Positions 11,185-18,904 of a stretch of DNA of 32,000 bases are shown here, in pieces; the stretch's first letter is position 1, and each line of letters begins with the position of its first letter. The DNA is from Nodosilinea sp. FACHB-141. Its GTDB lineage: Bacteria; Cyanobacteriota; Cyanobacteriia; Phormidesmidales; Phormidesmidaceae. The stretch covers positions 1 through 32,000 of the forward strand of contig NZ_JACJPP010000024.1 in NCBI RefSeq assembly GCF_014696135.1. Reading direction: 5' to 3'. The position numbers and the translations under genes were made by a program. A model generated the notes under the pieces. It had not been told where the DNA came from. It was given only the letters and a program-made list of their open reading frames with translations, and did not search any database.

Positions 11185-11925
11185 ATGTCAGACAGGAAAT
11201 TTCACTCCATTAAGGCGTTACCCTGCAATGACTACAAGGAAGCAGCGCCCGAAATGGATCGATCCATAAACTACGTCAAGTCCAAACAAAGGGTCGCTGA
11301 CCATGGGGAGGTGTTTACCCCAGCATGGATGGTGGAGGCGATGCTTGACCTGGTGAAGCATGAGACAGAGCGTATTGACTCCCGCTTTTTGGAACCGGCC
11401 TGTGGAAGCGGCAACTTTCTAGTGCAGATCATACGGCGCAAGCTGGCGGCGGTGGAGCTTAAGTACAGCAAGTCTGACTTCGAGCGGCGGCACTATGCAT
11501 TGCTTGGGCTGATGTGCATCTACGGGATCGAGCTGCTAGCGGACAACATTGTCGAGTGCCGTGCCAATGTGCTGGAGATTTTTGCCGAATACCTGGATCT
11601 GGATGAGGAAGACGATCTCTATCGGGCCGCATCCTATGTGCTGTCTCAGAACCTGGTGCATGGCGATGCCCTGACGATGCGTACCCACAACGACCAGCAA
11701 ATTACCTTTGCCGAGTGGGGCTATTTGGGGAAAGGCAAGTTTCAGCGGCGCGACTTCCTGCTCGACTCCCTTACCCAATCATCAAGCTATGTAGTGGATT
11801 CCCCGTTGTTTGCCCACCTGGGGAAGCATGAGATTTTCACACCGATGAAGACCTACCCGCCAATGACGGTGAGCGAGCTAGTCGCTGCCGAACACGGTGA
11901 CGTGCTGAAGGAGGACTCTCTATGA
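11185..11925 (+). CDS. DNA-methyltransferase-like protein with AdoMet motif I but no catalytic NPPY motif
   Basis: 246 aa. It contains GEVFTPAWMVEAMLD, FLEPACGSGNFL (a canonical motif I) and VHGDAL. No (N/D)PP(Y/F) motif occurs anywhere. Its stop overlaps the next ATG (ATGA at 11922-11925). Confidence 0.6.
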   Translation: MSDRKFHSIKALPCNDYKEAAPEMDRSINYVKSKQRVADHGEVFTPAWMVEAMLDLVKHETERIDSRFLEPACGSGNFLVQIIRRKLAAVELKYSKSDFERRHYALLGLMCIYGIELLADNIVECRANVLEIFAEYLDLDEEDDLYRAASYVLSQNLVHGDALTMRTHNDQQITFAEWGYLGKGKFQRRDFLLDSLTQSSSYVVDSPLFAHLGKHEIFTPMKTYPPMTVSELVAAEHGDVLKEDSL

Positions 11926-16347: not shown

Positions 16348-18904
16348 GCCCACCATCGAAGAAATCCTCGCACCCAAACCTGAAGCCCGGCCGCGTATTT
16401 ATGCCTGGACACCAGATGATCCGCCAGCTGTGTACGTCGGTCTGATCAAAGTGGGCCAGACAACGCAGGATGACGTAAACGCTCGTATCCGTCAGTCACA
16501 AGGGCAGATGCAGCAGGCCTACATCCTGCATTTAAACGAGCTCGCTGTACGTGTGGATGGCACACTTTTCCGAGACAGTGATGTGCGCCAGCGCCTAATC
16601 GAAAAAGGTTTCGAAAACGTTGTTATAAGGTCATCGCGCGAATGGATGCGCTGCACACCCGAAGATGTGAAAACGGCGGTAATCGAGCTACAGAATGGCT
16701 TGCGTTTTACGGGCAGGCATCACGAAACCTTCCCGATGCGCCGCGAACAGGCGGAAGCCGTGAACAAGACGCATGCGTACTTCCACTCGATTTGGAATGA
16801 GGATATGCACGCTGTTCCGCGCTTTCTCTGGAACGCAAAGATGCGTTTCGGCAAAACCTTCACCACCTACCAGCTGGCTAAAAAGCTGGGTGCTAAACGT
16901 GTGCTTGTAGTGACCTTCAAGCCAGCCGTTGAGGATGCGTGGCAGACGGACTTAGAATCCCATGTGGACTTCAACGGGTGGCAGTACCTCTCAAAATCCT
17001 TTGGGCGCGACCCCACCCAGATTGATCGCCGTCATCCCGTTGTCTATTTCGGCTCTTTCCAAGACCTCCTGGGCTGTGATAACGCTGGGAACATCAAAGC
17101 CAAAAATAAATGGCTGTACAAAGAGACATGGGACCTGGTGGTGTTTGACGAGTACCACTTTGGCGCGTGGCGGGAAACCGCGAAGGAGCTGTTTGAAGGC
17201 GAGGAAGATGCAATCTCTCGGATAGAGGCCCGCCTCGATGATGACAAGCGATTGAAGGAGAAAATCGCCGACTTGCAGGAGCCATTGGAGCAGGAGAAAG
17301 ACTTTCTACCCATCACTACCAAGGCCTATCTGTACCTGTCGGGAACACCGTTTCGGGCGCTATCCACAGGCGAGTTCATCGAAGAGCAGATCTTCAACTG
17401 GACCTACACAGACGAACAGCGGGCCAAGGAAGAGTTCGCGGCCAACTATCCTGACCAACGGAACCCCTACGGTGCGCTGCCCCAGATGCGCCTGCTGACC
17501 TACCAGATGCCAGATGAGCTGCTGGCGATCGCCAGCGCCGGGGAGTTTGACGAGTTCGACCTCAACGCCTTCTTCGAGGCCTCTGGCACCGGCACCGCTG
17601 CCCAGTTCAAACACAAAAGCGACGTTCAAAAGTGGCTCGAAATTATTCGCGGCAGCTACGCCCCCCAGTCAGTTGAATCTCTGAAGACCGGCAGCAGGCC
17701 ACCCTTTCCCTACTCCGATGTGCGCCTGCTGCCCTACTTACAGCACTCCTTCTGGTTCCTACCCAACGTCGCCGCCTGCCACGCCATGGCCAACCTACTG
17801 GCCGAACGGCAAAACACCTTTTGGCACGACTATAGGACGATCGTTGCCGCTGGCACCTCGGCGGGGATTGGCCTGGAGGCATTGCCGCCCGTCCGCAAGG
17901 CGATTGGCGGCGGCTTCGAGACCAAGACCATTACCCTTTCGTGCGGCAAACTTACCACTGGCGTAACGGTTTCACAGTGGTCATCTATCCTGATGCTACG
18001 CAACCTCAAGTCACCGGAGACCTACTTCCAAGCCGCCTTTCGCGTACAGTCGCCCTGGTCAATCAAAAACCCCAACGGCGACAACCCCAACGAAGAAGAG
18101 ATCCTCAAGCCCGCCTGTTTCGTGTTTGACTTTGCCCCCACCCGCGCCCTGCGGCAGCTCTCAGAGTATGGCATTGGCCTGTCGCCTAGTGAGCCAAACC
18201 CAGAGAATGCGGTTAAAGACCTCGTGTCATTCCTTCCCGTGCTGGCCTACGACGGTGCAAACATGACCCAAATTGACGCGGGCGGCATTCTCGATATTGC
18301 CATGGCGGGCACCTCGGCCACGCTGCTGGCTCGCAAATGGGAGAGCGCTCTGCTGGTGAACGTGGACAACGACACCCTGCGCCGCATTCTGAACAACCCC
18401 GAGGCCCTGGCCGCCGTGGAGCGTATTGAGGGTTGGCGGGCGCTAGGCGACAACATTATCGAGACGATCATCAACAAAAGCGAGAAGGTGAAGGGTCTGA
18501 AGAAAAAGGCAAAGGAAAACGAAGACGGCTTGACGGCTAAGGAGAAGAAAGAACTCACCGACGAGGAAAAGGAGTACAAATCTAAGCGCAAGCAAATCCA
18601 GGAGAAGCTGATCAAGTTCGCCACCCGCATCCCAGCGTTCATGTACCTGACCGACTTCCGAGAAAACACCCTCCAGGATGTGATCACCAAGCTAGAGCCG
18701 GACTTATTCCTGACCGTCACCAGCCTTACGGTCAAGGACTTCCATCTGCTCGTGGATCTAAAGGTGTTCAACACCGAGCACATGAACCTGGCCGTGTTTG
18801 CGTTCCGGCGTTACGAAGACGCATCACTCCGGTATACCGGTATTGAGAGCCATCGAGATCTAACCCATTATGGGCTGTACGACACCGTAGTGGAGAGGGA
18901 GTGA
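16340..18904 (+). CDS. GIY-YIG/T5orf172-like nuclease domain fused to SF2 helicase; paralog 2
   Basis: The preferred start is ATG at 16340, overlapping the upstream stop (ATGCCTAA). The track start at 16211 would lie inside paralog 1. 854 aa. Motifs are RIYAWTP..LIKVGQTTQDDVNARI...REWMRC, then NAKMRFGKT, VFDEYH, LSGTPF and QAAFRVQSPW. Confidence 0.8.
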   Translation: MPKPTIEEILAPKPEARPRIYAWTPDDPPAVYVGLIKVGQTTQDDVNARIRQSQGQMQQAYILHLNELAVRVDGTLFRDSDVRQRLIEKGFENVVIRSSREWMRCTPEDVKTAVIELQNGLRFTGRHHETFPMRREQAEAVNKTHAYFHSIWNEDMHAVPRFLWNAKMRFGKTFTTYQLAKKLGAKRVLVVTFKPAVEDAWQTDLESHVDFNGWQYLSKSFGRDPTQIDRRHPVVYFGSFQDLLGCDNAGNIKAKNKWLYKETWDLVVFDEYHFGAWRETAKELFEGEEDAISRIEARLDDDKRLKEKIADLQEPLEQEKDFLPITTKAYLYLSGTPFRALSTGEFIEEQIFNWTYTDEQRAKEEFAANYPDQRNPYGALPQMRLLTYQMPDELLAIASAGEFDEFDLNAFFEASGTGTAAQFKHKSDVQKWLEIIRGSYAPQSVESLKTGSRPPFPYSDVRLLPYLQHSFWFLPNVAACHAMANLLAERQNTFWHDYRTIVAAGTSAGIGLEALPPVRKAIGGGFETKTITLSCGKLTTGVTVSQWSSILMLRNLKSPETYFQAAFRVQSPWSIKNPNGDNPNEEEILKPACFVFDFAPTRALRQLSEYGIGLSPSEPNPENAVKDLVSFLPVLAYDGANMTQIDAGGILDIAMAGTSATLLARKWESALLVNVDNDTLRRILNNPEALAAVERIEGWRALGDNIIETIINKSEKVKGLKKKAKENEDGLTAKEKKELTDEEKEYKSKRKQIQEKLIKFATRIPAFMYLTDFRENTLQDVITKLEPDLFLTVTSLTVKDFHLLVDLKVFNTEHMNLAVFAFRRYEDASLRYTGIESHRDLTHYGLYDTVVERE

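Follow-up and report, generated by a model that had tools for sequence, protein, structure and literature searches.

Positions 11185-18904 of a 32,000-nucleotide (nt) stretch of DNA from Nodosilinea sp. FACHB-141 (contig NZ_JACJPP010000024.1, positions 1 to 32,000; hereafter the window) hold four intact same-strand genes and one scar. In order, the genes encode a small methylase-like protein, an Eco57I-family methylase and two nuclease-motors, hel1 and hel2, in each of which a T5orf172/GIY-YIG module precedes a superfamily 2 (SF2) ATPase. We read the locus, with a probability of about 0.6, as a split ATP-dependent restriction-modification (R-M) system that follows the logic of Types ISP and I, carries a GIY-YIG-type nuclease, uses two motors that act together and is present here as a chimeric copy. 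It would be the rarer, two-motor form of a large, catalogued and apparently unstudied family of ATP-dependent R-M-like loci. Domain content, conservation, gene linkage, a natural fusion and the chimeric history can be observed directly, and from these we infer every biochemical step. Open reading frames (ORFs) and junctions were re-derived from the sequence, which confirmed the ORFs, coordinates and overlapping junctions listed by a first-pass annotation of the same DNA.

Nuclease-motors, methylase and small subunit

The restriction candidates are hel1 (833 amino acids (aa), GTG start, 13846-16347, + strand) and hel2 (854 aa, 16340-18904, + strand), which are 45% identical over their full length and overlap through ATGCCTAA at 16340-16347. 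The hel2 start was set to 16340 (MPKPTIEE), where its homologues start; the mechanical ORF begins at 16211. Both N-termini match Pfam T5orf172 and MUG113, which belong to the GIY-YIG superfamily, with T5orf172 scores of 20.9 bits for hel1 and 20.6 bits for hel2 (cut-off 20), and a precomputed PF10544 match is present in many homologues. The nuclease core Y21, K37-x-G39, R49 and E101-W102 (hel2 numbering) is invariant across type A (the lineage of hel1), type B (the lineage of hel2) and a fused relative from Enterococcus described below. The first-pass annotation had proposed an SF2 motor with an N-terminal GIY-YIG-superfamily module, and had noted that missing catalytic residues would speak against it; the T5orf172 matches and the conserved Tyr, Lys-x-Gly, Arg and Glu-Trp bear the proposal out. 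In the ICP1 phage protein Odn, a T5orf172 protein and proven nuclease, the equivalent Glu is essential (PMC8263062). A decaying nuclease module in hel2, suggested by 18 of 52 deviations from the type-B consensus, was considered and rejected, because the same N-terminal variant recurs in two other loci (L007 and L091); all core residues of hel2 align in a wider alignment once a 1-aa indel is allowed.

Behind the nuclease module, hel1 consists of an SF2 ATPase similar to those of Snf2 and Type ISP proteins and a C-terminal helical domain. An AlphaFold2 model of hel1 (predicted local distance difference test (pLDDT) 76, predicted template modelling score (pTM) 0.77) delimits the T5orf172/GIY-YIG region at about residues 19-119, with the order strand, strand, helix, strand, helix, which we take to be that of the GIY-YIG fold. 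Foldseek searches with the model returned Chd1/Snf2 remodellers (E 1e-10 to 1e-9) and the Type ISP enzyme LlaBIII (4xqk_A, E 2.3e-10). Sequence and profile searches of the PDB with all three protein types found no similar chain, LlaBIII included. The motor motifs GKT (Walker A), DEYH, SGTP and QAAFRVQS are invariant in 53 homologues, and the ResIII scores of the two motors are 20.8 bits (under the 22.5 cut-off) and 28.7 bits. Neither motor has an NCBIfam model; hel1 is identical to the NCBI entry 'MULTISPECIES: restriction endonuclease [Cyanophyceae]'. Compared with a related locus (L006), the ratio of nonsynonymous to synonymous substitution rates (dN/dS) lies at 0.15-0.23 in hel1 and at about 0.04 in the motor part of hel2, and hel1 deviates at 3 of 295 family-conserved positions. 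Intact frames and low dN/dS together indicate that both genes are under purifying selection.

The 530-aa methylase (11922-13514, + strand) matches Pfam Eco57I (E 4e-33), N6_Mtase weakly and the PADLOC profile MTase_II PDLC03375 (E 1.6e-44), and carries a conserved canonical FDVIIGNPPYQ. Its order of motif X, motif I, NPPY and then a C-terminal variable region is that of the gamma class. Among 69 loci compared, residues 1-260 are conserved and residues 300-460 variable, so that variation across the module is concentrated in the C-terminal region of the methylase while the helicases are very conserved. This variable part is presumed, from its pattern of conservation, to be the target-recognition domain. 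A conserved Cys/His cluster, YCSKHANGxHS ... EHxW..GKCxxCGA, lies at residues ~123-161 between motifs II and IV and may be a zinc-binding insert.

The small gene (11185-11925, + strand) overlaps the methylase gene through ATGA at 11922. The first-pass annotation gave it as a 246-aa ORF; the ORF is present, but homologues and the NCBI record favour a start at 11254 or later over one at 11185, for a probable length of 219-223 aa, and the protein is identical to the 219-aa record 'N-6 DNA methylase [Nodosilinea sp. FACHB-141]'. It had also been counted as the second of two methylase-type proteins, which does not hold: it is a conserved subunit. Its Pfam and PADLOC matches are confined to the first ~100 residues of methylase models (for Pfam N6_Mtase/MmeI_Mtase, motifs X-I in the first ~50 model positions). 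Of the gamma-class set, the protein retains motifs X (HGEVFTP), I (LEPACGSGNFL), II (YGIELL) and III (HGDAL); the NPPY position is occupied by a conserved EWGYLGKGKFQRRDF, and in the remainder of the protein after EWGYLGKGKFQRRDF nothing resembles a target-recognition domain. In a profile comparison with the large methylase, only motifs X-I align. A role as the completing half of a split methylase was ruled out, since the 530-aa methylase owns motifs X, I and IV. These features suggest that the small protein is probably a non-catalytic, S-adenosylmethionine-binding subunit.

Its gene invariably comes first in the module, and no other part is as conserved: each of the top 120 homologues shares at least 79% identity with it, and the family comprises 599 clusters at 50% identity (E <=1e-30), nearly all stand-alone. 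Its AlphaFold2 model, built from 44 homologues, was unsuitable for a fold search (pLDDT 55) because the homologues are too alike, and no profile in the libraries scanned covers the small subunit as such. Two phage families in PHROGs, phrog_21201 (length 156) and phrog_4376 (length 134), match the motif X-II part of the protein (window 11254-11925) with E 1e-9 to 1e-12, so phages too carry stand-alone 'half-methylase' proteins.

Distribution, gene order and natural fusion

A genome scan with one genome per species returned at least 596 loci. Detailed analysis covered the best 80, which come from more than 15 phyla; 64 of these were assessable, having at least 2.6 kb of upstream sequence. Small protein, methylase and helicase occur on the same strand and in the same order in 61 of the 64. 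Co-occurrence of the methylase and the GIY-YIG-helicase beyond this replicon, on which the first-pass view of these genes as one module depended, is thereby established. The arrangement of small gene, methylase and T5orf172-SF2 motor, adjacent and on one strand, is found in the window and in plasmid and metagenome loci. The same gene order is seen on Sphingopyxis and Rhizobium plasmids and on a Verminephrobacter chromosome, where the small 'N-6 DNA methylase' has 206-220 aa, the methylase ~530-560 aa and the T5orf172-helicase ~840-850 aa. Despite the spread over so many phyla, the helicases of the best 80 loci are 67-81% identical to hel2. The nuclease-helicase family as a whole comprises more than 8000 protein clusters, with members labelled restriction endonuclease, GIY-YIG nuclease or DEAD/DEAH helicase.

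On Firmicute plasmids (Enterococcus, Pediococcus, Lactiplantibacillus and others), the T5orf172-motor and the Eco57I methylase are joined in a single polypeptide of 1446 aa, and the small gene just upstream remains a gene of its own. Such a natural fusion argues strongly that the nuclease-motor and the methylase work within a single complex. The motif of the helicase C-terminal helical domain sits right before the methylase part of the fusion, a position that suggests this domain as the putative element coupling motor and methylase.

Several loci depart from the common layout. In five (L026, L029, L037, L076 and L084), a gap of ~1.7 kb separates the small gene from the methylase; in L026 it encodes two proteins, the first of 383 aa with an HExxH motif and the second of 164 aa, and in L029 a homologous 383-aa ORF, with the other three grouped here by gap length alone. 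The metagenomic locus L124 (8797-12657), of the fused type, has two more same-strand methylase C-terminal halves (NPPY to end) after the helicase-methylase gene, possibly alternative recognition-domain cassettes. A divergent low-GC clade, L096-L120, comes from many metagenome assemblies and has an extra 237-aa ORF between methylase and helicase (for example L097 2673-8457); its small protein is without the EWGYLGKGKFQRRDF motif.

Two-motor variant and chimeric origin

The usual module has one helicase. Alignment splits the helicases into two lineages: type B, which is the helicase of all three-gene modules and has hel2 as its orthologue here, and type A, to which hel1 belongs. Type A is represented by ~49 clusters at >=52% identity among the matches listed and by none of the best 80 genome loci, and a metagenome scan added only a few type-A loci. 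Looking up the exact hel1 sequence returned no record. In all six loci with downstream sequence (the window, L006, L007, L008/L009, L091 and L093), type A is directly followed by type B; the type-B gene of L007 is frameshifted. The tandem helicase paralogs reported by the first-pass annotation are therefore a conserved arrangement and no accident. Taken together, these loci point to the four-gene form as a stable, rarer variant with an extra paralog between the methylase and the usual motor.

A recent simple tandem duplication of the helicase was rejected, given that the two lineages are old and paired in several distant loci, and only a 114-nt tract is homogenised. This tract, 14860-14973 in hel1 (+ strand) and 17378-17491 in hel2, is identical at 102 of 114 nt and contains a 59-nt exact run (14905-14963 and 17423-17481), while outside it the DNA of hel1 and hel2 is ~70% identical or similarity is undetectable. 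We attribute the tract to gene conversion.

The scar noted earlier between methylase and hel1 is real; it is not an anonymous spacer, however, but consists of two recognisable gene remnants. The upstream remnant (13507-13608, + strand; MTKTIEEILSPKPEARLRVYSYSIDDEAHQGLLK) corresponds to the first ~35 codons of a type-B helicase, identified by translation and by tblastn, which covers helicase residues 5-37. Its ATG overlaps the methylase stop (ATGACTAA at 13507-13514), as in intact three-gene modules, and it shows 77% nt identity to the start of hel2 and 81% aa identity to the start of the L006 type-B helicase. The downstream remnant (13613-13831, + strand), in another frame, is the last ~70 codons of a second Eco57I-family methylase (tblastn covers methylase residues 460-529), with 79% aa identity to the L006 methylase tail versus 50% to the window's own methylase. 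From 13610 to 18904, the window matches L006 7765-13035 in a single collinear blastn match of 80.1% that takes in the methylase tail, type A and type B. The left block, with the small gene and methylase, is 71% identical to L006 and has no match in the recognition region.

The remnants and the L006 match together indicate that one deletion, with its breakpoint at 13608/13610, fused a three-gene module to a downstream four-gene module. Lost in the process were the helicase of the first module and, from the second, the small gene and most of the methylase. The second-methylase remnant comes from the original partner of hel1 and hel2, which now stand behind a non-cognate methylase. The deletion looks recent, judging from the state of the remnants. 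In a verrucomicrobial locus (L013 5929-7980), a truncated helicase start (MTKTIEEIHSPKPEDRP...) comes after the methylase, and beyond it lie an IS200-like transposase ORF, a RhuM-like ORF and finally an intact helicase. Disruption of the methylase/helicase junction there, as in the window, hints at a recurrent site of recombination or insertion.

Comparison with known systems

Type ISP enzymes (LlaGI, LlaBIII) are similar in combining an N-terminal nuclease, an SF2 translocase of double-stranded DNA, a gamma-class NPPY adenine methylase and a recognition domain. The motor is related to LlaBIII and Snf2 by the Foldseek result, and the Firmicute relatives are single polypeptides with the same order of nuclease, motor and methylase. 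However, the N-terminal nuclease of Type ISP is of the Mrr/PD-(D/E)xK kind rather than T5orf172/GIY-YIG, its single polypeptide contrasts with four separate genes in the window, and it has no counterpart to the conserved small methylase-like subunit or the second motor paralog found here. Type ISP enzymes translocate with ATP and cleave when two converging enzymes collide. Type I systems (HsdM2-HsdS-HsdR2) resemble the locus in being multi-subunit, with specificity in the methylase complex and a nuclease followed by an SF2 motor, and their two motors per complex are a possible analogy to hel1 plus hel2. They differ in nuclease fold and methylase family (Eco57I here), and the recognition region lies within the methylase here, so that no HsdS is needed; accordingly, no HsdS-type gene was found in the window module or in 61 complete related loci. 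In Type III, the Res nuclease is a C-terminal PD-(D/E)xK domain, whereas here it is an N-terminal T5orf172 module and the ResIII match is marginal; Mod is a beta-class methylase with an internal recognition domain, in contrast to the gamma-class Eco57I-family methylase of the window. Of the first-pass contrast with Type III Res and Type I HsdR, the part on Res holds in both the position and the T5orf172 type of the nuclease; the difference from HsdR lies in the nuclease fold, since the order of nuclease and motor is shared.

Scanning the locus proteins with PADLOC gave generic R-M profiles only. One of these, PDLC03626 'REase_MTase_IIG' (1359 positions), is matched by hel1 and hel2 over positions ~146-800 (E 1e-35), by the methylase over 995-1359 (E 2e-38) and by the Enterococcus fusion WP_002305071 with E 9e-44, which means that a fused relative is already catalogued as an R-M enzyme. 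The Type IIG label normally denotes ATP-independent fusions of a PD-(D/E)xK nuclease and a methylase, such as Eco57I and MmeI. Here, by contrast, the methylase is without a nuclease domain and the restriction candidates combine a GIY-YIG module with an ATPase motor; the methylase domain family alone is shared.

Among published clusters, uncharacterised relatives of MmeI whose neighbours are a helicase and a GIY-YIG protein, as well as large nuclease-helicase-methylase polypeptides, were described by Morgan et al. 2009, who proposed a Type I-like system with single-strand modification for such clusters (PMC2731913). PF10544 (T5orf172) appears in defence-gene lists as R-M associated (PMC7251935). 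The closest studied analogue, DnmA(YeeA)-YeeB-YeeC of B. subtilis, likewise tightly links an adenine methylase with a recognition domain, a helicase and a T5orf172 nuclease, and is found in defence islands. It differs in that helicase and T5orf172 are separate proteins, with T5orf172 C-terminal in YeeC, instead of one protein with T5orf172 at the N-terminus. Compared by description, its methylase is MmeI-like with no small subunit reported, against an Eco57I-family methylase with a small subunit here. In the literature searched for a named system with this architecture, nothing went past DnmA-YeeB-YeeC and general remarks, and no paper was found on the small subunit, on an N-terminal T5orf172-motor fusion as an R-M enzyme or on the two-motor variant. 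The first-pass annotation did not recognise the combination as a named system, which agrees with this search; but it is not an unrecognised one-off, given the huge annotated family and the PADLOC Type IIG profile.

Proposed function and alternatives

In the split R-M system that we propose, the methylase would mark host DNA with N6-methyladenine and, through its recognition domain, supply the sequence specificity. The T5orf172-SF2 proteins would dock on it via their C-terminal helical domain, translocate double-stranded DNA with ATP and cut with the GIY-YIG module on meeting unmethylated sites. The small protein would be an obligatory subunit without catalysis of its own, which may either sense the cofactor or serve the methylase as a structural partner, and hel1 and hel2 would most likely act together, for example as two motors or two cutting sites per complex. 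The deletion joined the small protein and methylase of a three-gene module to hel1-hel2 of a neighbouring four-gene module. That hel1 and hel2 are intact after the loss of their cognate methylase fits a specificity taken from whichever methylase is present, and seems compatible with a methylase that, as in Types I, III and ISP, sets the specificity of restriction as well as of methylation.

Several points weigh against this proposal. DnmA-YeeB-YeeC showed no restriction or phage defence in B. subtilis (PMC9973331), although a Vibrio crassostreae version of that cluster affects phage sensitivity according to a study cited in the same paper. No experimental study of the three-gene family was found in the literature searched. 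The T5orf172 scores barely exceed the Pfam cut-off, and the fold and cofactor binding suggested for the small protein are read from motifs only. That the first module's methylase works with the second module's motors is a presumption, and the present data fit a hel1-hel2 heteromer and two independent enzymes alike. Finally, the scar, the frameshifted NERD-UvrD gene upstream and the integrase fragment downstream (both described below) show that the island is eroding.

In an unlikely alternative, the locus is a functional relic: only the methylase, together with the small protein, would be active as an orphan epigenetic methylase, with hel1 and hel2 silent or decaying. The deletion did remove the cognate methylase of hel1 and hel2 and left ~330 nt of pseudo-sequence between methylase and hel1, the adjoining NERD-UvrD gene is frameshifted and the integrase truncated, and B. 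subtilis offers a precedent, with a similar proposal made for DnmA-YeeB-YeeC (PMC9973331). Yet the 5.06 kb of hel1 and hel2 coding sequence is free of stops and frameshifts, its ATPase and nuclease core residues are all kept, and neither the three deviations among 295 conserved positions in hel1 nor the dN/dS of 0.04-0.23 speaks of decay. A GAGGA ribosome-binding site precedes the GTG start of hel1, and no terminator-like site was found in 13514-13846. The remnants themselves are barely decayed and the deletion hence recent, which leaves little time by which to judge. Less likely still, hel1 and hel2 could be alternative nuclease-motors that each use the same methylase, giving redundancy against phage anti-restriction proteins or serving different DNA substrates. 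Both paralogs have complete ATPase and nuclease motifs, type B stands alone in 80 of the best 80 genome loci, and the type B of four-gene loci is not systematically unlike that of three-gene loci. Type A, on the other hand, never occurs without type B directly downstream (6 loci), which argues that it depends on B, and the overlapping start/stop junctions suggest coupled, stoichiometric expression.

A role outside defence, in a mobile element or another DNA transaction, such as plasmid maintenance by post-segregational killing or homing-like spread via T5orf172, strikes us as very improbable. It would draw on the frequency of the family on plasmids, on the strong horizontal mobility implied by high identity across phyla and on the commonness of T5orf172 in phage homing-endonuclease-like genes (PMC8263062). 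Tight linkage or fusion of a nuclease-motor to a methylase whose recognition region is hypervariable is nevertheless the hallmark of R-M, the window's neighbours are the defence genes TIR, NB-ARC-TPR and NERD-UvrD, and addiction behaviour is a known side effect of R-M rather than an alternative to it. The family could also represent a distinct, unnamed class of ATP-dependent R-M system, a tentative idea that we hold to be somewhat more probable than any of these rivals. Its methylase would work only with a catalytically dead S-adenosylmethionine-binding paralog, as a bacterial DNA counterpart of METTL3-METTL14 logic, and its GIY-YIG nuclease-translocases would carry out restriction. In the four-gene variant, the paralogous motors would assemble on one asymmetric site as a heteromer with two motors and two nucleases. 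Were this so, the window chimera would be a natural experiment in which motors have been re-paired with a foreign methylase.

For the split R-M reading, the scale of the family stands against what is known of it: at least 596 species-representative genomes have the three-gene module, which shows 70-80% identity across more than 15 phyla and also occurs on enterococcal and lactic-acid-bacteria plasmids, and no biochemical or genetic study of it was found. The family would extend the ATP-dependent R-M enzymes by a motor-driven branch that uses a GIY-YIG nuclease and would give a function to a very conserved 'half-methylase' that is now annotated as N-6 DNA methylase. The two-motor variant and the natural chimera offer comparisons for how motors, nuclease and methylase are coupled, and annotation pipelines and defence finders could treat the trio as one system.

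Genomic surroundings

Two EVE-type reader genes, 19054-19491 (+) and 19607-20128 (-), lie convergently on opposite strands downstream of hel2. The first-pass annotation had named them beside the module; both are genuine EVE matches, but as part of the system they were rejected, with no EVE homologue in 133 of 133 related loci. They lie in a low-GC block (19054-23497, 42-47% versus 55-60% elsewhere). The block also holds a 179-aa tyrosine-recombinase (integrase) fragment, 20085-20624 (-), and the second EVE ORF overlaps it at its own upstream end. An 876-aa ORF in the block, 20867-23497 (-), gave nothing significant against Pfam, PADLOC or NCBIfam. The window is free of tRNA genes.

Upstream, a gene for a NERD and UvrD-type helicase protein (9193-11048, +; PADLOC candidate C3a187, E 9e-186) is frameshifted near 10830, with the UvrD C-terminal motif LMTMHASKGLE in another frame, in a 69-aa ORF (10839-11048). 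The split is either a pseudogene or a sequencing error. The stretch 4242-7408 (+) holds a TIR-domain gene (TIR_2, 1.5e-33) and a gene for an 833-aa STAND-type NTPase with NB-ARC and TPR domains, whose start lies within the end of the TIR gene; the pair looks like a separate defence system. The two ORFs upstream of the TIR gene, 1625-3328 and 3351-4145, have no family match. With their TIR, NB-ARC-TPR and NERD-UvrD genes, the surroundings form a defence island. A ParA-type ATPase gene with a small downstream ORF (7646-8546) suggests that the contig is probably plasmid-like. The right side of the window, 25369-30388, carries a complete Opp/Dpp-type ABC peptide transporter operon and a DUF1349 gene.

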